Made by a program: the position numbers and the translations under genes
The notes under the pieces: generated by a model
Database searches by the model: none
What the model saw: only the letters and a program-made list of their open reading frames with translations
Told to the model about the DNA's origin: nothing
Part shown: in pieces, positions 1,316-11,772 of the stretch
How the letters are laid out: each line of letters opens with the position of its first letter
How positions within the stretch are numbered: the first letter of the stretch is position 1
Source: a virus
Lineage: Duplodnaviria > Heunggongvirae > Uroviricota > Caudoviricetes
Direction: 5' to 3' (one strand)
Virus record (IMG/VR): IMGVR_UViG_2681813233_000007
Length of the DNA: 64,000 bases

Positions 1316-1708
1316 ATGGAACAAATCAGCAGCGCAGAAATTGCGGATATCATGATCAGGGCTGACTGCTATCTGACAGTCACTGAAATTACCACTCTCG
1401 CCAAAGAAAAATACCCTCATCTCCATGTTTCACGAGTAAGTGTAACTAACATCATTCGTCATTTTGTTCGTTCAAGCAGGGCAATCTGTGAGCTGGATGA
1501 TCGTGTGTATCCACGAAAATACTGGCTACATGGTCTGAACGGATATCAGTTCAAGGTGCGCGGGCGCACGCCTGAATACGGTAGCTTACTGGTTAAAAAC
1601 TGTAGCAGGAAATCAGTCGAACAGGCGCGAAAAGAGCAACGAGAGCTGGTGGACATGGCGAATAAGCTGTGGAATGCCGCCGTTAAAAAGCGTGGTGTTG
1701 CTTTATGA
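1316..1708 (+). CDS. hypothetical protein immediately upstream of pacA
   Basis: ORF track; stop overlaps pacA start. Confidence 0.5.
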   Translation: MEQISSAEIADIMIRADCYLTVTEITTLAKEKYPHLHVSRVSVTNIIRHFVRSSRAICELDDRVYPRKYWLHGLNGYQFKVRGRTPEYGSLLVKNCSRKSVEQARKEQRELVDMANKLWNAAVKKRGVAL

Positions 1709-3069
1709 GTCTGGTTAATTGGGAGGAGCACCGCGCCCGCTTTATAGCGTTGCGTGAAGAAAAAGGGATCACTGTAAAGGAATACTGTGAGGAGCATGGC
1801 CTTAGCTTCAATACAGCCAGAAAGCATCTCAATATGAAAAAAAATGAGGTGCGGTCGCAGGTAAAGACAACAAAAAAAAGCACCAAATCACCTGAAAAAA
1901 AACGGGCGGGAAGAGCAACAAAAAAGCTGGAAGAGGGCGCAGAAAAAACAAAATTTACAGAAATTGACAATTCGCAGGGTGCAGGTTCTTTCCGAAGTAT
2001 GCCAAGAAAGAAAACTCCGGATCATGAAAGTAATACCAATAATAACAATGAGATAAAAGAATCTGTCAGGAGATCATTGCGCGAAAAAATGGCGAAAATG
2101 ATCCCCGAAGAAGATAAAAGCGCCCCAAAAATTGAGGGATCTTCAGCAATGATCCCTGGCGGTGCTGTGCAACGTGCCACATTGCCCACTACGAATGTGG
2201 CTCGCGACATGATGAAGAACGGCGCAGAAGAACACCTGCGGTTAGCAATTCAAATGGCGCAAGAGCGCGCACTTCAGTATCAAAGCATTGTTGATCAGGA
2301 GGCCGAACGTCTACAGGCGGAAATAGACGCCTTGGGCGATAAAGAGCCAGAAGGAATGCACCCTGGGCAGCGCCTTCTCGGTCTAATCAGTGACGCGGCC
2401 TACTACATGAATGATTTTATCAGTAGGTTGGCAGCTATATATCAGTCCGAACAAAAGCTGCGACAGGGGGATGAAAAGCTTCGTCAGAGCGCTCGCCAGC
2501 AAGCATTCAAAGAGGCTGAGGCCAGAGAAAAACTCGAATTAGCACGCCTACAGGCCGAACAGCGTGGCAAAGAGATTGAATATCGCATTGGCGCTGACGC
2601 ACGCGCAGCCAGAGTTATCGCCGCCGCTATACGTATGCGTGAGCGCGAGGAACTGGATGATATCGGTGTTGCTGAATACATCGAGCGCCAGGGGGTCAGC
2701 GTCCCGGCTATCCTCGCGGCGCGCGCGGCGAAAGCTATCACTCTTCTCGAACCACCTGTTTCTGACGTCAATGATGTTGATGATGAACAGCTGGACAAAG
2801 AGGCAAGGGAGTTTGCGACGCTTCAGGCTAACCATCCGCAATGGCTGGCAGAGCGCCGGGCGGATGTGGCAACCATTGTTGAAGAATTGGGGTGCGGAGA
2901 TTACGACCGCAATGGCGAGCGTAAAGCTGGAGAATTCGAGGCCAACGACGAAGAGCTGGATATTGACCCTTCGGCAACGGCTGAAATTTACGGTGATTAT
3001 GATGCATCTGATGCAGGGTATGACGCCGGAGATGATGATATCGCGATAGAACCGCCGGAGGATGATTAA
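1705..3069 (+). CDS. pacA: terminase small subunit PacA-like
   Basis: Position directly upstream of and overlapping the large terminase; N-terminal HTH-like region, long acidic C-terminal tail; internal GATC hexamer cluster typical of a P1-type pac site. Confidence 0.8.
   Translation: MSLVNWEEHRARFIALREEKGITVKEYCEEHGLSFNTARKHLNMKKNEVRSQVKTTKKSTKSPEKKRAGRATKKLEEGAEKTKFTEIDNSQGAGSFRSMPRKKTPDHESNTNNNNEIKESVRRSLREKMAKMIPEEDKSAPKIEGSSAMIPGGAVQRATLPTTNVARDMMKNGAEEHLRLAIQMAQERALQYQSIVDQEAERLQAEIDALGDKEPEGMHPGQRLLGLISDAAYYMNDFISRLAAIYQSEQKLRQGDEKLRQSARQQAFKEAEAREKLELARLQAEQRGKEIEYRIGADARAARVIAAAIRMREREELDDIGVAEYIERQGVSVPAILAARAAKAITLLEPPVSDVNDVDDEQLDKEAREFATLQANHPQWLAERRADVATIVEELGCGDYDRNGERKAGEFEANDEELDIDPSATAEIYGDYDASDAGYDAGDDDIAIEPPEDD
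2019..2155. other. candidate pac (packaging initiation) site: cluster of five GATC-containing hexamers inside pacA
   Basis: GGATCA 2019, AGATCA 2071, TGATCC 2099, GGATCT 2137, TGATCC 2150, plus TGATCA 2291; resembles the Dam-methylatable hexamer repeats of the P1 pac site. Confidence 0.4.
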
Positions 3070-4577
3070 TGGCTGGAGGGCGCAAGATTAAATGCGTCAC
3101 CAGCGATCCACGCTGGCGCGATATGGTAATCAAATACCGCTACAACTTTACCCAGGCTGTTGTCGATATTTTTGGGATGTTCCCCTCCCACCAGCAGCAG
3201 CAGATCATTCAGTCCGTGCAGGAAACGGGGAGTAGGACGACCGTCACGTCCGGACACGGAACGGGGAAGTCGTCCCTTACCGCGATGTTGCTGTTGATTT
3301 TCATGATCCTGTTCCCCGATGCCCGTGTCATCATTGTTGCTAACAAGATAGGCCAGGTAAAAACAGGCGTATTCAAATACGTTAAACAGTATTGGGCGAA
3401 TGCAGTTAAGCGTCATGGGTGGTTGCAGACCTATTTTGTCCTCTCTGACACCATGTTTTATGAGCGCTCCCGTAAGGGGATTTGGGAAGTTCTCTGCAAA
3501 GGTTATCGACTCGGCAACGAAGAAGCGCTGGCGGGGGAACACGCGGCACATTTGCTTCTAATTCTGGATGAAGCATCTGGTATATCTGATAAGGCGATCG
3601 GCGTAATGACCGGTGCTCTTACTGAAGAAGATAACCGGATGTTGATGCTATCCCAGCCAACAAGGCCAAGTGGTTATTTTTACGATTCGCACCATTCTCA
3701 AGCAAAAACCCCAGACAACCCGAAAGGGATCTGGACAGCAATTGTTCTTAACTCGGAAGAATCACCGTTCGTCACACCACAATTCATCAAGCAGAAGCTT
3801 CTGGAATATGGGGGGCGCGATTCTATTGAGTACATGGTCAAGGTGCTTGGTCAGTTCCCACGAGAAATTAACGGCTATTTGCTTGGTCGTGATGAATGCG
3901 ATCGCGCTGCTCGCCGCAAGGTGCTGTTGGAGAAAAACTGGGGATGGGTGGCAACGGCTGACGTTGGTAATGGGCGAGATAAGTCGGTCCTCAACATCTG
4001 CAAGGTATCTGGTCACAGGGATAAGCGGCGCGTTGTTAACTTTAAGGTAATGGAGATGCCTGGCACTATGGACCCATTGGCCTTTGCTGACTTCATATAT
4101 AACGAATGTACGCCGGAAAAATACCCGAATATAACAATCGCGGTTGATGCTGATGGTTTTGGTTCTGATACGTGTGCGCAGTTGGTGCGTCGTGGTGCGA
4201 ACCCGGTACGTATTCGGTGGGGAAAACCCATGTTTGCGAACAAAGACAGGGAGCGATTTGTTAATCAGCGTGCCTACGCAAATATTATGGCGCGAGATGC
4301 CATAAAGTCAGGGCGTATGCGGATAGACAGTGACCCTAAAACGGCAGAGCAAGCGTCAAAAATCCCCTTTTTACTGAATGAAGAAGGGAAAATGGCGATG
4401 ATGCGCAAAGAGCACATGCGGCAAAAGCTAAACATCAAATCGCCTGACCGATGGGATACCTACTGCTTCACTATGCTGGTGGACTATGTGCCTGCTAATG
4501 AAGATATTGGTGCCGAAATGGCAACTTTCCGAGATCAGGTTCTGGCGGATATCGAAATGCCGGATCTGGATATATAA
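3069..4577 (+). CDS. pacB: terminase large subunit PacB-like
   Basis: Walker A SGHGTGKS, Walker B LLLILDEA, C-terminal nuclease-like region; coupled to pacA. Confidence 0.9.
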   Translation: MAGGRKIKCVTSDPRWRDMVIKYRYNFTQAVVDIFGMFPSHQQQQIIQSVQETGSRTTVTSGHGTGKSSLTAMLLLIFMILFPDARVIIVANKIGQVKTGVFKYVKQYWANAVKRHGWLQTYFVLSDTMFYERSRKGIWEVLCKGYRLGNEEALAGEHAAHLLLILDEASGISDKAIGVMTGALTEEDNRMLMLSQPTRPSGYFYDSHHSQAKTPDNPKGIWTAIVLNSEESPFVTPQFIKQKLLEYGGRDSIEYMVKVLGQFPREINGYLLGRDECDRAARRKVLLEKNWGWVATADVGNGRDKSVLNICKVSGHRDKRRVVNFKVMEMPGTMDPLAFADFIYNECTPEKYPNITIAVDADGFGSDTCAQLVRRGANPVRIRWGKPMFANKDRERFVNQRAYANIMARDAIKSGRMRIDSDPKTAEQASKIPFLLNEEGKMAMMRKEHMRQKLNIKSPDRWDTYCFTMLVDYVPANEDIGAEMATFRDQVLADIEMPDLDI

Positions 4578-4604: not shown

Positions 4605-5642
4605 TTACCAGAGCTTCGCGGCGTACTGCGTTTGGGGGAATGTGTATCCGTAACGTTCTTCGATTGCTTTGCCGTATTTTTTACGAGCTTCATTCAGTTT
4701 AATGCCGGTCAGGTCGTCTCCAGAGGCCATCATTACGTCTAACAATTCCAGATCCATTTTATCCAGCCTTGCCATTGCTTCACGTGATGTACGTATCTTA
4801 CGTTCAATGATATGGCGAATAGCCGGATCGGCATCCTCCAGCATCTTAGCGGATTTCTGCTTAAGGCTTTCATTGCGAATATCGATGTTCCTTAAGATGT
4901 ACGACTTCGCAACGTAGCTTGGCTGGTGTTTTTCCAGGTCACGAACACGATATAAGTTAAAATCGCCGAGAAGGCTGCAAGGTACCGATTCGACGCCAGA
5001 ATAAATTGTAATGCTCCGGCGTTCACCAACATTATTGACAACGGGGATCGTTGTCTTCGGTAGTCTTGCGAAAACCAATGCGCCATGTGCGCCAACTCTA
5101 AAGCGAGAAAGGGCATTGCTGCCTTCGATGTTTGTTGTCAGCACAACATCTGTATATGCCTCTTTACGCGCCCGGTAGATCTCGCCTTCAGGCTCAGCTT
5201 CAAAGAAGCGCTGTTCTTCTTCAAGAGCACCTACGATTTGAGAAAAAACCCTATTTTTCAGGCTTTTCTTTATGATTTTGTCGTATTTTTTTAGCAATTG
5301 TTCACGTGTAAATGTACGTGTTGTTGTAGCGCTTTGCACAACGACATGCGTGCTTTGATTGGTGTCCTCAATGATGAATGGGATCGGAGAATATACAGAC
5401 TCAACAATGTTCGACGCTTTGCCGTCGGCATCGCGGCACATGTCAACGAAGGCTTTCCATTCAGCAAGACATTTTTCAGCTTCTTCTAATATGTTTTGGT
5501 CATGCGTTAATGCAACATGGCGGAATTCCTCGCCAGCATAACTGGTATCATGGAAAACAGAGTTTGCGACCACCAGCTCTTTCCACCGTTCAGCGGTTTG
5601 CAGGAACCGTTTGTACTCTTTCTCGATCGACTTCTTACTCAT
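4605..5642 (-). CDS. hypothetical protein in the c1 position (candidate immunity repressor)
   Basis: Divergent from the recombinase gene, between pacB and the rox site as c1 is in P1; operator-like box TTTTCTAACA 20 bp upstream of its start; no sequence-level confirmation. Confidence 0.4.
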   Translation of the reverse strand: MSKKSIEKEYKRFLQTAERWKELVVANSVFHDTSYAGEEFRHVALTHDQNILEEAEKCLAEWKAFVDMCRDADGKASNIVESVYSPIPFIIEDTNQSTHVVVQSATTTRTFTREQLLKKYDKIIKKSLKNRVFSQIVGALEEEQRFFEAEPEGEIYRARKEAYTDVVLTTNIEGSNALSRFRVGAHGALVFARLPKTTIPVVNNVGERRSITIYSGVESVPCSLLGDFNLYRVRDLEKHQPSYVAKSYILRNIDIRNESLKQKSAKMLEDADPAIRHIIERKIRTSREAMARLDKMDLELLDVMMASGDDLTGIKLNEARKKYGKAIEERYGYTFPQTQYAAKLW

Positions 5643-5852: not shown

Positions 5853-5884
5853 TAACTTTAAATAATTGGCATTATTTAAAGTTA
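5853..5884. other. rox-type recombination target site (14-bp inverted repeats, 4-bp spacer)
   Basis: TAACTTTAAATAAT-TGGC-ATTATTTAAAGTTA; perfect 14-bp inverted repeats; reverse complement equals the rox sequence as I recall it; lies about 150 bp upstream of the recombinase gene. Confidence 0.85.
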
Positions 5885-6036
5885 GGCTATAATCATGTGT
5901 AGATGAACAGTGTTGACATCACTGAAAATACGTGCCTCGAATCAAAGGCTTGTATTTTGAAAATTAACTTATAGCTACCCTGTCATTTTTATATTTTTCG
6001 CGTAGCGTCATCTGTATATAGAGGTGTAATAGTTTC

Positions 6037-7065
6037 ATGAGTGAATTAATTATCTCTGGCAGTTCCGGTGGTTTTCTGCGCAACATTGGCAAAGAGTACC
6101 AGGAAGCCGCAGAAAACTTTATGCGGTTCATGAATGACCAGGGGGCTTATGCGCCGAATACTCTGCGCGACCTCCGGTTGGTGTTTCATTCCTGGGCGCG
6201 CTGGTGTCACGCTCGCCAGCTTGCCTGGTTTCCGATCTCACCAGAAATGGCCCGCGAGTATTTTCTTCAGCTGCATGATGCCGATCTGGCTTCGACCACC
6301 ATTGATAAGCACTACGCCATGCTGAACATGCTGCTTTCGCATTGTGGCCTTCCGCCACTTTCGGATGATAAAAGTGTTTCTCTGGCTATGCGGCGCATCC
6401 GGCGCGAAGCGGCAACTGAAAAAGGCGAACGAACAGGCCAGGCTATACCGCTTCGGTGGGACGATCTGAAACTGCTCGACGTCCTGTTGTCCAGGTCAGA
6501 ACGGCTGGTGGACCTGCGCAACCTGGCTTTTCTCTTTGTTGCATACAATACGCTGATGCGTATGTCGGAAATATCGCGTATTCGTGTAGGTGATCTGGAC
6601 CAAACAGGTGACACTGTCACGCTACATATTTCACACACGAAGACAATAACGACCGCCGCCGGGCTTGATAAGGTGCTTTCCCGTCGCACTACCGCTGTGC
6701 TGAATGACTGGCTGGATGTTTCCGGGCTTCGCGAGCATCCTGACGCTGTGCTGTTCCCGCCGATACACCGTAGCAATAAGGCCAGGATCACGATAACGCC
6801 CCTTACTGCACCTGCAATGGAGAAAATATTCAGCGACGCCTGGGTGTTGCTGAATAAAAGAGATGCTACGCCAAACAAAGGAAGATACCGGACGTGGACC
6901 GGGCATAGTGCACGCGTCGGGGCCGCTATTGATATGGCTGAAAAGCAGGTGTCTATGGTGGAGATCATGCAGGAAGGAACCTGGAAGAAACCGGAAACAC
7001 TTATGCGGTATCTTCGCCGTGGCGGCGTGTCTGTGGGGGCTAATAGCCGCCTGATGGATTTGTAA
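6037..7065 (+). CDS. dre: Cre-family tyrosine recombinase (Dre-like)
   Basis: 342 aa; alignable to Cre along its length (e.g. NLAFL..AYNTL.R..EI.RIRV.D, W.GHSARVGAA.DMA, EIMQ.G.W); adjacent rox site. Confidence 0.9.
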   Translation: MSELIISGSSGGFLRNIGKEYQEAAENFMRFMNDQGAYAPNTLRDLRLVFHSWARWCHARQLAWFPISPEMAREYFLQLHDADLASTTIDKHYAMLNMLLSHCGLPPLSDDKSVSLAMRRIRREAATEKGERTGQAIPLRWDDLKLLDVLLSRSERLVDLRNLAFLFVAYNTLMRMSEISRIRVGDLDQTGDTVTLHISHTKTITTAAGLDKVLSRRTTAVLNDWLDVSGLREHPDAVLFPPIHRSNKARITITPLTAPAMEKIFSDAWVLLNKRDATPNKGRYRTWTGHSARVGAAIDMAEKQVSMVEIMQEGTWKKPETLMRYLRRGGVSVGANSRLMDL

Positions 7066-7138
7066 ATTAAATTTCTAACACATCTTTTTAGATTAACATC
7101 TTTGCTGTAAAGTACCCTCGCCTATTTAGGAGGGTGCT

Positions 7139-7483
7139 TTGCAGAGTCAAATCACGGAATCAAGACGCTTCAAGGTGGATGGTTACACCGTAACCTTCGC
7201 CGCTGGTGTTAAGAACAGTCATGCTGTCGTTGTGTTCGGCATCATGACCGGGCTTGAGGCCGTCCCTGTGTTTACCCTCGAAAAAAACTGGCGAAATCTG
7301 GAGGAAGCAGAAAGCTACGTCCGGAAAGTAACCATCATTGCCGCCGAAAAACTCCTGGCCCACTATCAGGAAAATTATCGCACTATGGTCGAGAAGATTA
7401 ATCTCGCTTTCACTCGCCCCACTACCGGCTTTATTGCACCGGATACTAATGCAGGTCGATATCCTGCAAGGGGGCGTCGGTGA
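7139..7483 (+). CDS. hypothetical protein
   Basis: ORF track; operator-like box ATTTCTAACA at 7080-7089 upstream. Confidence 0.5.
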   Translation: MQSQITESRRFKVDGYTVTFAAGVKNSHAVVVFGIMTGLEAVPVFTLEKNWRNLEEAESYVRKVTIIAAEKLLAHYQENYRTMVEKINLAFTRPTTGFIAPDTNAGRYPARGRR

Positions 7484-7956
7484 AAACTTATTACCCATCT
7501 CTGAATTGTTACCCGTCTTCCTATCCAGAATTATCCGGGAAGCTGTTAGCTCTATTAGCTAAAGCACCTACGGAATGGTTTAAGCCAGTCGTTATCAATC
7601 CACACTTCCTGGATTACGGAACTGTTCGCACTCGTAACGAACTCAAAAACCTACTGGCGCATGGATTCATTCGACACCGTGCCGGGAAAGGCTATCAGTT
7701 AGCGATTGCGCCAGAAGAGGCCGTGCGGCTATTCGCATATCGTGACAGCCAGACAAAAGCTCGGGTAATAGCTCAAATACTTCATAACGGCAGCACCTAT
7801 GCCCGCCAGTTTGGCGGCGACACGTCGCAGTTCTTGCGGGCGGTGCGATCGCTGGAGGAGCAAGGAGTTATTGAAAGTTCCTGTCTTCCTGTTCCTACCG
7901 TTCCACATATCAAACGTCGGGTTTACACCTTCACGCAGAGAGCTAAAAAACAATGA
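7480..7956 (+). CDS. hypothetical protein
   Basis: ORF track; overlapping stop/start with flanking genes. Confidence 0.5.
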   Translation: MKTYYPSLNCYPSSYPELSGKLLALLAKAPTEWFKPVVINPHFLDYGTVRTRNELKNLLAHGFIRHRAGKGYQLAIAPEEAVRLFAYRDSQTKARVIAQILHNGSTYARQFGGDTSQFLRAVRSLEEQGVIESSCLPVPTVPHIKRRVYTFTQRAKKQ

Positions 7957-8447
7957 TTTACGTAAAAGTGAAACGCCTACATCCGGCAGCAAAACTTCCA
8001 GCTTATGCCACCTCCGGATCGGCGGCGATGGATTTTGAGGCTGTTGAAATAAAACCATGCGTCGATAGCAATGGTGCAATTTCCTCAAGCTGGTGGGTGT
8101 ACACCGGACTGGCTATGGAGATCCCGCCCGGCTGGTGTCTGAAACTCTATCCGCGCTCCGGATTGGGCTGCAAAAAACATACTCGCCTGGCTAACTGCGT
8201 AGGAATTATCGACTCCGATTATCGCGGTGAAATCATGGCAAAACTGATTACTGATCCCGGCGGGGAAGGCGTTTGTCTCAAGCCTGGAATGGCTGTCATG
8301 CAAGGCATTTTTGAGCGTGTTGAACAAGTCTCACTAGTCGAGGTTGAGGAACTCAACGAAACGGAACGTGGTGCTGGTGGCTTTGGTAGCACATCGGAAG
8401 ACCACTTTGAAATCAAGCGCACACCGCTTCAGTACGCAAAGTTTTAA
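7953..8447 (+). CDS. dut: dUTPase (trimeric dUTP pyrophosphatase)
   Basis: Motifs PRSGLG, GIIDSDYRGEI, RGAGGFGSTS. Confidence 0.85.
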   Translation: MIYVKVKRLHPAAKLPAYATSGSAAMDFEAVEIKPCVDSNGAISSSWWVYTGLAMEIPPGWCLKLYPRSGLGCKKHTRLANCVGIIDSDYRGEIMAKLITDPGGEGVCLKPGMAVMQGIFERVEQVSLVEVEELNETERGAGGFGSTSEDHFEIKRTPLQYAKF

Positions 8448-8461
8448 GCAGAGGAAAGGCT

Positions 8462-9163
8462 ATGAATTACATGACAACGAAAGAGCTTTTTAAGTTCCTT
8501 CCCAAATACAAAGCTCACAAAAACGTTAGTGCATCGAAAATCAAAAATGTTGTTATTTTCGGAGTAACTGCTTCCCCACTTTGGGGCTGCATCGAACTCG
8601 TTGAACCAAAAGGGGCAACAGTTTGTGTTGACGCAATTTTTTTACAAAAACACCGACCAAAAACTGGCGGGTATCTGATCGTTTATGAAAACGGTTATCT
8701 GTTCTATGCCCCGGAGAAACCATTTGAGCAATGCTATGGCCTGGTTAACGACGCCTCCGAAAATGGGGTATCGCTCAGCATTGAAGGTCACAATGGGGTG
8801 ACATTCATTACAGCCAGGGACGTAACTATTTCTGCTGGCGGTATCGCTACTCTACAAGAAGAAATCGACCTTGAAGCAGCCGACTTTTCTGACGCGCTGA
8901 TGTGGCTGAAGGATGGCAAGAAAGTTGCTCGACGCGGGTGGAACGGCGAAAACCAATTCTGCTGGCTGGTTCCTGACAAACAGGGTGCTTCAAGACTAAC
9001 CCCTATAAAACATGCCGCAAACGGAGAGCTTGAAATCAATTTCGACTCTCCTCTTGCTCCTTATGGTGCGCATTTCGTTTTGAAAAATGCACAAGGTGTA
9101 GTTGTTCCATGGATGCCTTCTGTAGGTGACCTGCTGGCATGTGACTGGTTTGTAGTGGAGTGA
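8462..9163 (+). CDS. protein with C-terminal DUF2829-like (Tad2-like) domain
   Basis: C-terminal ALMWLKDGKKVARRGWNG ... DLLACDWFVVE; N-terminal ~140 aa of unknown function. Confidence 0.55.
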   Translation: MNYMTTKELFKFLPKYKAHKNVSASKIKNVVIFGVTASPLWGCIELVEPKGATVCVDAIFLQKHRPKTGGYLIVYENGYLFYAPEKPFEQCYGLVNDASENGVSLSIEGHNGVTFITARDVTISAGGIATLQEEIDLEAADFSDALMWLKDGKKVARRGWNGENQFCWLVPDKQGASRLTPIKHAANGELEINFDSPLAPYGAHFVLKNAQGVVVPWMPSVGDLLACDWFVVE

Positions 9164-9169
9164 TTTAAC

Positions 9170-9976
9170 GTGGAAAATACTAAAGCAATTCAATACCGCT
9201 TGCGTAATGGCCTGCTGGTGGCTGTTAACGCCGACATGTCACTGCCGTTTGACACGATTGAACGCACCATAATGACGTATCTCGGCTTTAATGAAGAACT
9301 GAATGAAGAGCATGGCGTAGCTATATGGAGTGATGCAGACAGCGGCGTTCGTCGTTACATCACCGCCAGGGGCAAAGACTACTCTCTGGAAGAACTGTTT
9401 GCCCTTGCGCAGTCTTTCGAATGTGTAGCATTAGACCTGTTTAATGATCCTGCTATAGCGCAACGACTTATACGCGAGCTTGGGCTATCCGTTACACCAA
9501 TTATCTTTAAAAATGGCAGCCTGACTGGCACATGGCGCGTAGAACGCATATCAAACTACCTTCCATATAACCGACAGTTAAATGGAGTAATCTCCGGCGT
9601 TAATCAGCCCGTAGCATGTGAAAATGTAAACCTGGTTGTCGCTGTTTTGGCAACCGCATGTCGTGTTATCGGTTTGGCTAAACAGGCATTTATTCATTTC
9701 CCAAATGGTGCAGAAGGTAGCGCAGAGATTATCGCGTGTGATTTCGAATTTACCTGGATGCTACGCGAATATCTGGACCAAACAGTATTCCGTGCCGAAG
9801 AACTGGATATGTATATCACGTCAACGATTCCAGACGATGTGCGAGCTGAAGCAATCGCTACAGCCAGGGCGAAATGCCGTGCGGCGATTGCAGAACAGGC
9901 CAAAGAAGAACAGTCCGATGAAGTCGCGGCAGATGTGGAGGCAGAGGTAGCGGAGGATGCTGATGCTGACGCCTAA
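9170..9976 (+). CDS. hypothetical protein with acidic C-terminal tail, coupled to terminase-like paralogue
   Basis: ORF track; C-terminus EEQSDEVAADVEAEVAEDADADA; 20-nt overlap with next gene. Confidence 0.5.
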   Translation: MENTKAIQYRLRNGLLVAVNADMSLPFDTIERTIMTYLGFNEELNEEHGVAIWSDADSGVRRYITARGKDYSLEELFALAQSFECVALDLFNDPAIAQRLIRELGLSVTPIIFKNGSLTGTWRVERISNYLPYNRQLNGVISGVNQPVACENVNLVVAVLATACRVIGLAKQAFIHFPNGAEGSAEIIACDFEFTWMLREYLDQTVFRAEELDMYITSTIPDDVRAEAIATARAKCRAAIAEQAKEEQSDEVAADVEAEVAEDADADA

Positions 9977-11063
9977 AAACATCACCGAATTACCAGAGTG
10001 GAGAGAGCTGGTAAGCAAATATAGCCATGACTGGGCATTAGCAGCAGAAGAGTTGATGGGTGTTAAGTTAACCCACCAGCAAAAGCTAATTGTTGAGGCG
10101 ATTCAACAAAAAGGTTCAGCAGTCAGCGTCACCACTCCTGAAGGGATAGGCCAAAAGACGGTTATCGCTATAATTAGTATTCTTTATACAATCCTGATGC
10201 CTGAGTCTAAAACGGTTATTGTTTCCCCAAAGTTCTATAATTGTCGCAGGCAAGTTATCCAATACATAAGTACGTATTGGGATAGAGTCAGTAACAGAAT
10301 CCCATTGCTGGGAGAATATTTTAAAGTCGATGGAAACGGCATCAATCATCGTTACCGGGAATATTGGGGCTGCGAAATTAAGCCATATCACCGAAATTAT
10401 GAGGAAGGTTTCGGTGGATATTATGCTGAACATCTTTTAATCATTGTTACGGAGGCGGCTCTTGCTGGCGATCGGCTATTCAGCATGTTAAGAGCATCGT
10501 TAGTAAGTGACGATTCACGTATACTTTTAATGTCCGCTCCTTCAGAGGAGGAGCATGGACACTTTTACGATTCCCATCATGGTCGTGCTAAATCAGAAGA
10601 AAATCCATGTGGTATTTATACAGCCATCAAGCTGAACGCAGAAGATACCCCCATTATTTCTCAAGGTTATCTTGATAACATTGCAGAAATATATGGTGGT
10701 AAAAACAGCGATTACTACCGTCGTATGATTCTTGGTGAGTTTCCTGGTATTAGGGAGGCTGTTCTTGAATCAGATATGCCGAAGACAATGCGCTTTTCGA
10801 TGCCTGATGGTAGTGAATGGATAATGCCATTACGAGTGATAGCCCGGCATCATGCACAGCACCACGCCAAAAAACATGGCGTTACAACATTGGAGTGGTT
10901 GAAATCGCACACCATTCCACTCTTCACTGCAGATCACAATGCTATCGTTGAGTGGGCAAAAACAATTCCGTGGGAGAATGTTGCTGAATACGCCCACATG
11001 CTAAAACCGCCGAAAGACAGGCAAGAAATTAGCTGGCTGACAGCAGAAAAAATCATTGAGTGA
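9957..11063 (+). CDS. terminase large-subunit ATPase-domain paralogue with degenerate Walker motifs
   Basis: Alignable to 3069..4577 over ~250 aa (HQQ..I, LLII, HGHFYDSHHGRAK vs SGYFYDSHHSQAK, YGG....Y.....LG.FP); Walker A lysine replaced (GIGQKT), Walker B D replaced (IIVTEA); no nuclease domain. Confidence 0.7.
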   Translation: MLMLTPKNITELPEWRELVSKYSHDWALAAEELMGVKLTHQQKLIVEAIQQKGSAVSVTTPEGIGQKTVIAIISILYTILMPESKTVIVSPKFYNCRRQVIQYISTYWDRVSNRIPLLGEYFKVDGNGINHRYREYWGCEIKPYHRNYEEGFGGYYAEHLLIIVTEAALAGDRLFSMLRASLVSDDSRILLMSAPSEEEHGHFYDSHHGRAKSEENPCGIYTAIKLNAEDTPIISQGYLDNIAEIYGGKNSDYYRRMILGEFPGIREAVLESDMPKTMRFSMPDGSEWIMPLRVIARHHAQHHAKKHGVTTLEWLKSHTIPLFTADHNAIVEWAKTIPWENVAEYAHMLKPPKDRQEISWLTAEKIIE

Positions 11064-11070
11064 TAGTAGG

Positions 11071-11100
11071 AAGCCCGCCTGGTTGAGCGGGCTTCTTTTC
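11071..11100. terminator. hairpin between convergent genes
   Basis: AAGCCCGC-loop-GCGGGCTT followed by CTTTTC. Confidence 0.45.
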
Positions 11101-11479
11101 AAATATTGGAACCATATAGTTCACGTAGTTTTTCCGCTACTGAAGATACGGGGATTTCACCAGTTGCAGCCCCCACCGCAAGTTCCACCAGCACGGGAGA
11201 ATCATATACCTGTATACCGTTACGGCGTAGAAATAGCAGCGCACTGTTTAGCGCGGTACGCTTATTGGCATCATTGAATATATGCCCTCTCGCAGTAGCC
11301 ACCAGGTAGGTTGCGGAGACTTCGAAAAGGTCGGTGATCTCTTCGTAGGCAACTCTGGCCTGAACTCTCCCGATAATGGCCTCTGCCCTACCCGGATCTG
11401 ACATTCCCGGCAGGCCGCCGTAGCGGCTTATATTCGCATCATGAAGCGCAATAAGTTCTTCCGGTGATATATGCCTCAT
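11099..11479 (-). CDS. doc: Doc toxin (Fic-fold kinase) of phd-doc addiction module
   Basis: 126 aa, near-identical to P1 Doc as recalled ([39 protein letters not shown]...). Confidence 0.95.
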
Positions 11480-11700
11480 TATCGGTTAACCAGTTCCTTG
11501 TTGGTGGAGTCCAGGGTGTCAAACAGGGATGCAAATTCAGCATCCAGCGCCGCCTTTTTGTAGGCTTCGAAAGTAGCCTTGCTGACAATTACTGCTGGTT
11601 CACGGCCTCTGCGGGTGATTTCAACCTCTTCCCCGGCTTCAACATTGTTGAGCAATTCAGAAAGGTTGCCGCGCGCGGTACGGAAGTTAATGGACTGCAT
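11479..11700 (-). CDS. phd: Phd antitoxin
   Basis: [15 protein letters not shown]...; start taken at third codon of the track ORF to match the 73-aa Phd; stop overlaps doc start. Confidence 0.9.
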
Positions 11701-11772
11701 AAACACCTCGTGTACTCGTTATGTGTACACAATCATAAACTTCACAGGCATAAAGCACCAGCACTTTGCAGC

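Follow-up and report, generated by a model that had tools for sequence, protein, structure and literature searches.

No proteins of tailed phages are more conserved than the large terminases, which are also a main target of the innate sensors of bacteria. Interference with terminase is known from the Ppi proteins of Staphylococcus aureus pathogenicity islands (SaPIs) and the Rpp proteins of phage-inducible chromosomal islands (PICIs), which act by binding the small terminase. In the P1 family of phage-plasmids, the region around the IS1-associated gene A (isaA) is a variable hotspot (PMC9603915), and CRISPR interference has shown that isaA of P1 is nonessential (PMC10695390). We analyzed a 64,000-nucleotide stretch of DNA from IMG/VR record IMGVR_UViG_2681813233_000007 (Caudoviricetes), referred to in its entirety as the window, in which an initial annotation had described a catalytically degenerate paralog of the large terminase ATPase domain together with an acidic-tailed partner protein. 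The element belongs to the P1 family and resembles D6; Escherichia phage D6 is the top phage match of the window, and identical plasmids are present in E. coli. The terminase-like gene product, here called the paralog, is a two-domain accessory protein of 366 amino acids (aa) in which a dead terminase ATPase fold (N-domain) is joined to a conserved domain of ~100 aa (C-domain). Its dead fold belongs to a widespread, fast-evolving family of pseudo-enzymes that arose from the large terminase and that is undescribed in Pfam, NCBIfam, or the literature searched.

Both of the open reading frames (ORFs) on which the initial annotation was built, 9170..9976 (268 aa, GTG start) and 9957..11063 (368 aa), are present. 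The ATG at 9963 is a better start for the second of these, because a GGAGG motif lies six nucleotides upstream of it and because the database versions of the protein are 366 aa long and begin with MLTPKN. Both candidate starts overlap the upstream ORF, the stop codon of which occupies 9974-9976, making the proposed translational coupling plausible. BLASTP pairs residues 7-263 of the paralog with residues 8-264 of PacB, the resident large terminase (3069..4577), including the N-terminal ~55 residues, with 87 of 258 positions identical (34%; E 3e-52), which is far beyond chance. The losses that had been read from the sequence are all real: the Walker A lysine is gone (SGHGTGKS in PacB has become TPEGIGQK, K to Q), as is the Walker B aspartate (ILDEAS has become IVTEAA, D to T), and the nuclease domain is absent, since PacB aligns only up to about residue 263 and the protein ends at residue 366. 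The lysine at position 65 (GIGQKT) was considered as a shifted Walker lysine and ruled out, because the position reads K/K/P/P/T/T in relatives and is not conserved. The protein was also checked for membership in an unrelated ATPase family, and its top structural matches are large terminases. Sequence, fold, and the family-wide loss of catalytic residues thus all identify a catalytically degenerate homolog of the terminase ATPase. Searches of Pfam, NCBIfam, and PADLOC gave no significant match for either the paralog or the upstream protein, and a sequence search of the PDB gave none. PHROGs places the paralog with PacB under "unknown function" (phrog_5902 includes the dead clade described below), and in GenBank records it appears as "hypothetical" or under the mistaken name "terminase large subunit".

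The 150 best cluster representatives of an exhaustive HMMER search were aligned as relatives, and their motifs were tabulated, with 108 full-length active relatives compared to 13 dead-clade sequences (PacB numbering). The dead clade is defined here by a PacB-type ATPase fold, loss of the Walker A lysine and of the Walker B Asp-Glu pair, the absence of a nuclease domain, and a length of 230 to 444 aa, all of which apply to the window paralog. Five positions that are nearly or fully invariant in active proteins are not conserved in the dead clade: K67 of Walker A (100% in active proteins; Q/E/R/H/T/M/C/I in the dead clade), D167 of Walker B (91%; T/I/V/M/L/P), E168 of Walker B (100%; E/N/D/H/Q), H158 (100%), and Q96 (90%). 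The Q-motif, two P-loop glycines, G156, the C-motif serine, the FYDSHH motif, and several lid residues are kept in active and dead sets alike; the F and Y of FYDSHH are each found in 100% of the dead clade, compared with 92% and 70%, respectively, of the active proteins. W24, W106, and R253 are conserved residues specific to the dead clade. As the paralog lacks all of the residues that are invariant among active relatives, catalysis would not be expected of it.

In a neighbor-joining tree, the paralog groups with P0003, P0004, P0007, P0023, P0024, P0026, P0027, P0029, and P0031, and most motif-dead sequences form one clade that is not sister to the resident PacB, although this is a crude method in which long-branch attraction is possible. 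All of the motif-dead sequences within the dead clades of the tree are short (230 to 444 aa) and lack the nuclease domain; P0106 (875 aa) was scored as motif dead yet groups with active terminases. The dead clade is old, diverse, and found mainly in P1-like phage-plasmids. The window protein is accordingly a member of an old family, so that the homology to the large terminase put forward in the initial annotation holds but a recent duplication of the resident gene does not. Word-indexed homology searches yielded few relatives, locus scans made with single proteins (P0029, P0024, and P0031) found no loci, and no paper on a dead or pseudo-terminase or on a terminase decoy was found in the literature searched.

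The two domains of the paralog have evolved in different ways. Between the window and plasmid pPSS-10_3, protein identity is 97.8% for PacB, 94.5% for PacA, 97.6% for IsaA (the upstream protein; see below), and 98% for the C-domain of the paralog but only 53% for its N-domain, and the DNA shows sharp borders between conserved and diverged segments. The ratio of nonsynonymous to synonymous substitution rates (dN/dS, or omega) is about 0.47 for the N-domain and 0.1 to 0.25 for the C-domain in three of four informative pairs (0.79 in the remaining pair, which has a dS of 0.016), compared with about 0.1 for IsaA and 0.02 for the N-domain of the true PacB. The N-domain of the paralog is thus ~20 times less constrained than that of PacB, and its cassette-like exchange is uncoupled from PacA and PacB. 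A hypervariable patch begins at the former P-loop and extends downstream of it, and protein entropy is highest at residues 91-150. The raised dN/dS of the N-domain, together with the lost catalytic residues and nuclease domain, might suggest a functionless, decaying remnant of a second terminase gene. We regard this as a most unlikely description of a gene whose ORF has stayed intact in at least 13 clusters and among relatives sharing between 37% and 100% identity, whose omega is below 1, and which is fused to a well-conserved domain (omega, 0.1 to 0.25); the residues conserved specifically in the dead clade likewise argue for a new function and not for decay.

These patterns also bear on a role in the element's own packaging, in which a dead copy made early would contend with PacB for access to PacA, pac DNA, or the portal, thereby delaying or tuning pac cleavage. 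The homology to the resident PacB, which includes the N-terminal ~55 residues, and the early operon that holds the gene in P1-type elements (see below) are compatible with such a regulator. However, PacA and PacB are 94 to 98% identical where the N-domains of the paralog share only 53% identity, the gene is missing from ~80% of P1-like plasmids, P1 itself packages normally without it, and the paralog and the resident PacB are not sisters in the neighbor-joining tree. The near invariance of PacA and PacB where the N-domain varies and the lack of the gene in most P1-like elements make regulation of the element's own packaging improbable.

The initial annotation was correct about the loss of the nuclease domain but overlooked that residues ~265-366 form a distinct conserved domain and are not a leftover. 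Homologs of the C-domain occur alone as proteins of 98 to 158 aa (P0089, P0133, P0144, and P0150), and the domain matches the C-terminal end of phrog_17928. In Cronobacter phage JK004, gene_35 (L012, 5001-5297) encodes a stand-alone C-domain directly after ban/DnaB that shares 74% identity with that of P0007, whereas at the equivalent site of a related contig (L006, 6001-7098) a dead N-domain is fused to the C-domain. The C-domains of JK004 and L006 are 74% identical, and the two arrangements represent a clear domain fusion event. The C-domain also ends ORF36 (511 aa) of Xanthomonas phage CP2, which lies within a DUF2303-Erf-exonuclease-SSB module. Conversely, the dead N-domain occurs without the C-domain as a 263-aa protein encoded directly after a gene for a Ref-like, RecA-dependent nuclease (L018), and it is joined to a different C terminus in P0027. 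The element that contains the 263-aa protein (IMG/VR UViG_3300045988_166783; 6330-7789 and 3650-4324) is a more distant P1-like one and encodes a 25%-identical relative of IsaA 2.7 kb upstream of the dead-domain protein.

The 268-aa protein encoded upstream of the paralog is a homolog of IsaA of P1 (48% identity; E 2e-90) and matches phrog_2326 over profile positions 1-263 of 264 (E 9e-137). The initial annotation had likened this protein to PacA on account of its acidic tail and had suggested that the two genes encode a pseudo-terminase pair. The tail is indeed present (...EEQSDEVAADVEAEVAEDADADA), and that of PacA is likewise acidic; however, BLASTP detects no similarity between the protein and PacA, many IsaA relatives have no acidic tail, and PacA matches terminase PHROGs and helix-turn-helix Pfam models where the 268-aa protein matches phrog_2326 only. 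IsaA was accordingly rejected as a PacA analog, as it has no similarity to PacA and its tail is unconserved. That IsaA and the paralog form a degenerate complex resembling small and large terminase is very improbable, even though the two ORFs overlap, both IsaA and PacA carry acidic tails, and dead domains have IsaA-like genes close by in three lineages. Each gene is found without the other (isaA without the paralog in P1, D6, SJ46, and Klebsiella elements; the paralog without isaA in L006), and their alleles reassort independently: between the window and L015, the paralog is identical and IsaA has diverged, and between the window and L014, the reverse is seen. The two genes are frequent neighbors in three lineages and not an obligate pair. 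IsaA shows weak fold similarity to Hjc/endonuclease.

A near-full-length paralog is carried by 163 of the 790 plasmids with a PacB-type match (about one in five). Among complete E. coli genomes, the allele group of the window was found in 45 of 5,426, exclusively on plasmids, and the paralog is absent from P1, D6, and SJ46. The isaA-paralog pair occupies two sites, one between dre and doc in D6-type elements and one between ssb and hxr in P1-type elements; dead-domain genes without an adjacent isaA follow ban (L006) or ref (L018). At the P1-type locus, a C1 operator with one mismatch precedes ssb, a strong terminator follows the paralog, and the genes ssb-isaA-paralog adjoin the dar anti-restriction operon. 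The operator and terminator point to early, repressor-controlled expression in these elements. In P1 itself (L004, 21569-24132), IS1 and the unrelated gene isaB come directly after isaA, whereas in the IS1-free P1-type relative MH422554 (L002, 15219-17100), the dead gene comes directly after isaA, between ssb and hxr. IsaB of P1 was considered as a C terminus of the paralog severed by IS1 and was ruled out, because it has no similarity to the paralog and homology to the IS1-free relatives stops at the isaA stop codon. A Vibrio campbellii plasmid (NZ_CP050473.1; H155) gave two separate matches to the paralog/PacB query, and Vibrio P1-like plasmids may carry a second terminase-like gene.

The genes found around the two domains suggest an accessory factor in DNA replication or recombination, in which the dead translocase fold would serve as a DNA- or protein-binding scaffold and the C-domain would dock to SSB, to the Ban/DnaB helicase, or to Ref/Erf-type functions. 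The C-domain alone directly after ban/DnaB in JK004 and its fused form at that site in L006, the C-domain that ends CP2 ORF36 within a recombination-type module, the place of the gene in the ssb operon of P1-type elements, the N-domain-only form directly after the Ref-like nuclease gene, and the weak endonuclease-like fold similarity of IsaA are all consistent with such a role. A housekeeping role leaves unexplained the ~20-fold-relaxed constraint and cassette swapping of the N-domain, as well as the absence of the gene from most P1-like elements, and adjacency is weak evidence because early operons gather accessory genes of every kind. We therefore consider a replication or recombination function possible but unlikely; if it is correct, the paralog would add a new case of a viral motor giving rise to a pseudo-enzyme.

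In the window, the paralog sits ~5 kb from pacA-pacB, behind dre, dut, a Tad2-like gene, and isaA, and not beside the small terminase gene (Table 1). The promoter listed in Table 1 is the only strong sigma-70-like one 5' of the gene string dre/cre-orf-orf-dut-Tad2-like-isaA-paralog, and no plus-strand terminator-like site is convincingly intergenic between that promoter and position 11077; we infer that the string from dre/cre through the paralog is one operon. The consensus of the P1 C1 operator was not found in the window, as would be expected of a heteroimmune D6-type element. The product of the Tad2-like gene matches PF11195 (E 2.7e-21, residues 141-232), and the Tad2-like family is a family of anti-Thoeris sponges. 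The protein bears an N-terminal extension of ~140 aa; plasmid pPSS-10_3, although nearly identical elsewhere, either lacks this extension or has other sequence in its place (alignment gap at 8462-8760). The adjacency of a Tad2-like gene and isaA recurs in Salmonella phage SJ46, at another site in the genome. In D6, a small pdcA-like gene occupies the position held by the paralog in the window. A 32-bp site overlapping the -35 hexamer of the promoter, 5' of the Dre/Cre-like recombinase gene, is presumably rox, a half-site of which is annotated in the D6 record. Given this overlap, binding of the recombinase could autoregulate the whole downstream gene string.

Table 1. Features of the window from the packaging genes to the addiction module, with positions in the 64,000-nucleotide stretch
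Feature	Position	Strand	Description
pacA	1705-3069		Packaging module
pacB	3069-4577		Packaging module; large terminase
C1-type repressor gene	4605-5642	-	
rox-like site, 32 bp	5853-5884		Reads TAACTTTAAATAAT-TGGC-ATTATTTAAAGTTA
Sigma-70-like promoter	5866..5893	+	TTGGCA-16-TATAAT, 11/12 matches
Dre/Cre-like recombinase gene	6037-7065		Followed by two small ORFs
dut	7953-8447		
Tad2-like (DUF2829) gene	8462..9163	+	Directly 5' of isaA
isaA homolog	9170..9976	+	268 aa; variable acidic C-terminal tail; not a PacA/TerS relative
GGAGG Shine-Dalgarno and likely start ATG of paralog	9952-9956 and 9963-9965	+	Embedded in codons of the IsaA tail
N-domain of paralog	9963..10748	+	Residues 1-262; large terminase ATPase fold without catalytic residues
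Hypervariable patch in N-domain	10130..10310	+	58-73% DNA identity between alleles otherwise ~97% identical
Former Walker A, TTPEGIGQKT	10131..10160	+	Residues 57-66; P-loop glycines kept, lysine lost
Former Walker B, LLIIVTEAA	10434..10460	+	Residues 158-166; Asp lost, Glu unconserved in the family
FYDSHH motif	10563..10580	+	Residues 201-206; common to active PacB-type terminases and the dead clade
C-domain of paralog	10749..11063 (including stop codon)	+	Residues ~263-366; small conserved domain, also a stand-alone protein
Likely terminator	11070..11100		GC-rich hairpin and then T-run between the paralog and convergent doc; stem at 11077-11092, followed by TTCTTTT
doc/phd addiction module	11099-11706	-	Convergent with the paralog; terminator hairpin 11070-11100 common to both

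We tentatively favor a binding-only mimic of terminase that is used in conflict as the function of the paralog, ranking it ahead of an accessory role in replication or recombination and placing regulation of the element's own packaging third. Being presumably unable to hydrolyze ATP, the paralog would act by binding. Resembling terminase and produced ahead of the genuine enzyme, it would engage something that recognizes terminase ATPase domains, the first candidates being host terminase sensors of the Avs1-3/Upx type and the second being components of the packaging machinery in rival elements; a constant role as anchor or effector would fall to the conserved C-domain, and IsaA would be a frequently cotranscribed neighbor and not an analog of the small terminase. 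The early-operon setting, the Tad2-like and dar neighbors, and the pattern of diversification point in this direction. In the most specific form of this proposal, which we consider doubtful, an ATP-blind early mimic would occupy or misassemble Avs1-3/Upx sensors before PacB appears. If true, it would be the first target-mimic inhibitor of a bacterial receptor resembling the nucleotide-binding leucine-rich repeat (NLR) family, and an arms race with sensor alleles would be written into its hypervariable, cassette-like face.

A number of observations weigh against use of the paralog as a conflict mimic. No PADLOC family was matched at E values up to 0.1 by the paralog, IsaA, or the Tad2-like protein, and there was no match to a known anti-defense family. 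Recognition by EcAvs2 uses terminase-bound ATP and a bridging ATP, and SeAvs3 reads residues of the terminase active site (PMC13601566); since exactly these features have been lost, the paralog may be invisible to the sensors, which would amount to evasion and not to blocking. Plain binding as a decoy, one of the options raised in the initial annotation, is therefore less straightforward than was supposed there. An intact terminase-ATPase-like protein, vs.8 of phage T4, activates Avs2 rather than inhibiting it (PMC13601566). DNA metabolism neighbors (ssb, ban/DnaB, ref, and dut, and Erf/exonuclease for the C-domain) are as frequent as anti-defense ones. Finally, mosaicism can come from recombination of old lineages without positive selection, and omega is below 1.

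The second candidate target would make the paralog a dominant-negative subunit that stalls the PacB-type motor of a rival P1-like element or titrates its partners. This form of interference fits a fold that is complete, with N-terminal extension and lid, yet lacks catalysis; divergent alleles could mirror different targets, and the most variable region, residues 91-150, is probably located at the surface. Nevertheless, the C1 operator on the P1-type operon should keep the gene silent in a lysogen, when exclusion is needed, identities of 34 to 38% to PacB-type terminases make coassembly uncertain, and there is a risk of poisoning the resident PacB. We consider packaging interference rather unlikely. 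A conflict mimic of either kind would offer a direct experimental route to the ways in which phages contend with terminase-sensing immunity or the packaging of rivals.

Among the known systems nearest to the paralog, PacB of P1 and D6 shares the N-terminal ATPase fold with its Q-motif, P-loop glycines, C-motif serine, FYDSHH motif, and lid (34% over 258 aa). The paralog differs from PacB in having none of the Walker A lysine, the Walker B Asp-Glu pair, the invariant histidine and glutamine, and the RNase H-like nuclease domain; it has instead an unrelated C-domain of ~100 aa, sits outside the packaging module, in operons of early or accessory type, and is accessory and fast evolving. Of the hallmarks of a functional large terminase, it retains an ATPase domain of the additional strand catalytic E (ASCE), terminase-type class but has no Walker residues, no nuclease, and no place in the packaging module. 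Like the paralog, T4 vs.8 (L017, 8254-8913) is a short protein that stands alone, is related to the terminase ATPase domain, and has its gene apart from those for packaging. Unlike the paralog, it has intact Walker A (GGRQSGKS) and Walker B (IIDE) motifs, and it has no profile similarity to the dead clade (hhalign probability, 0.2%); it triggers EcAvs2 (PMC13601566) and is not a known inhibitor. This small terminase-ATPase-like protein appears to be of independent standing. By comparison, SaPI Ppi and PICI Rpp would be functional analogs if the paralog interferes with packaging by binding; they are not terminase homologs, they target the small terminase, and no homology or common context with them was found here. 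Another near counterpart is IsaA of P1 (phrog_2326), which is 48% identical to the upstream protein of the window; in P1-type elements, isaA comes immediately before the paralog, as in the window. P1 itself differs from the window in having IS1 and isaB, whose product is unrelated to the paralog, at the paralog position of its IS1-free relatives. The comparison gives context to the isaA region of P1, in that the IS1-free relatives hold a dead terminase gene where P1 has IS1 and isaB.

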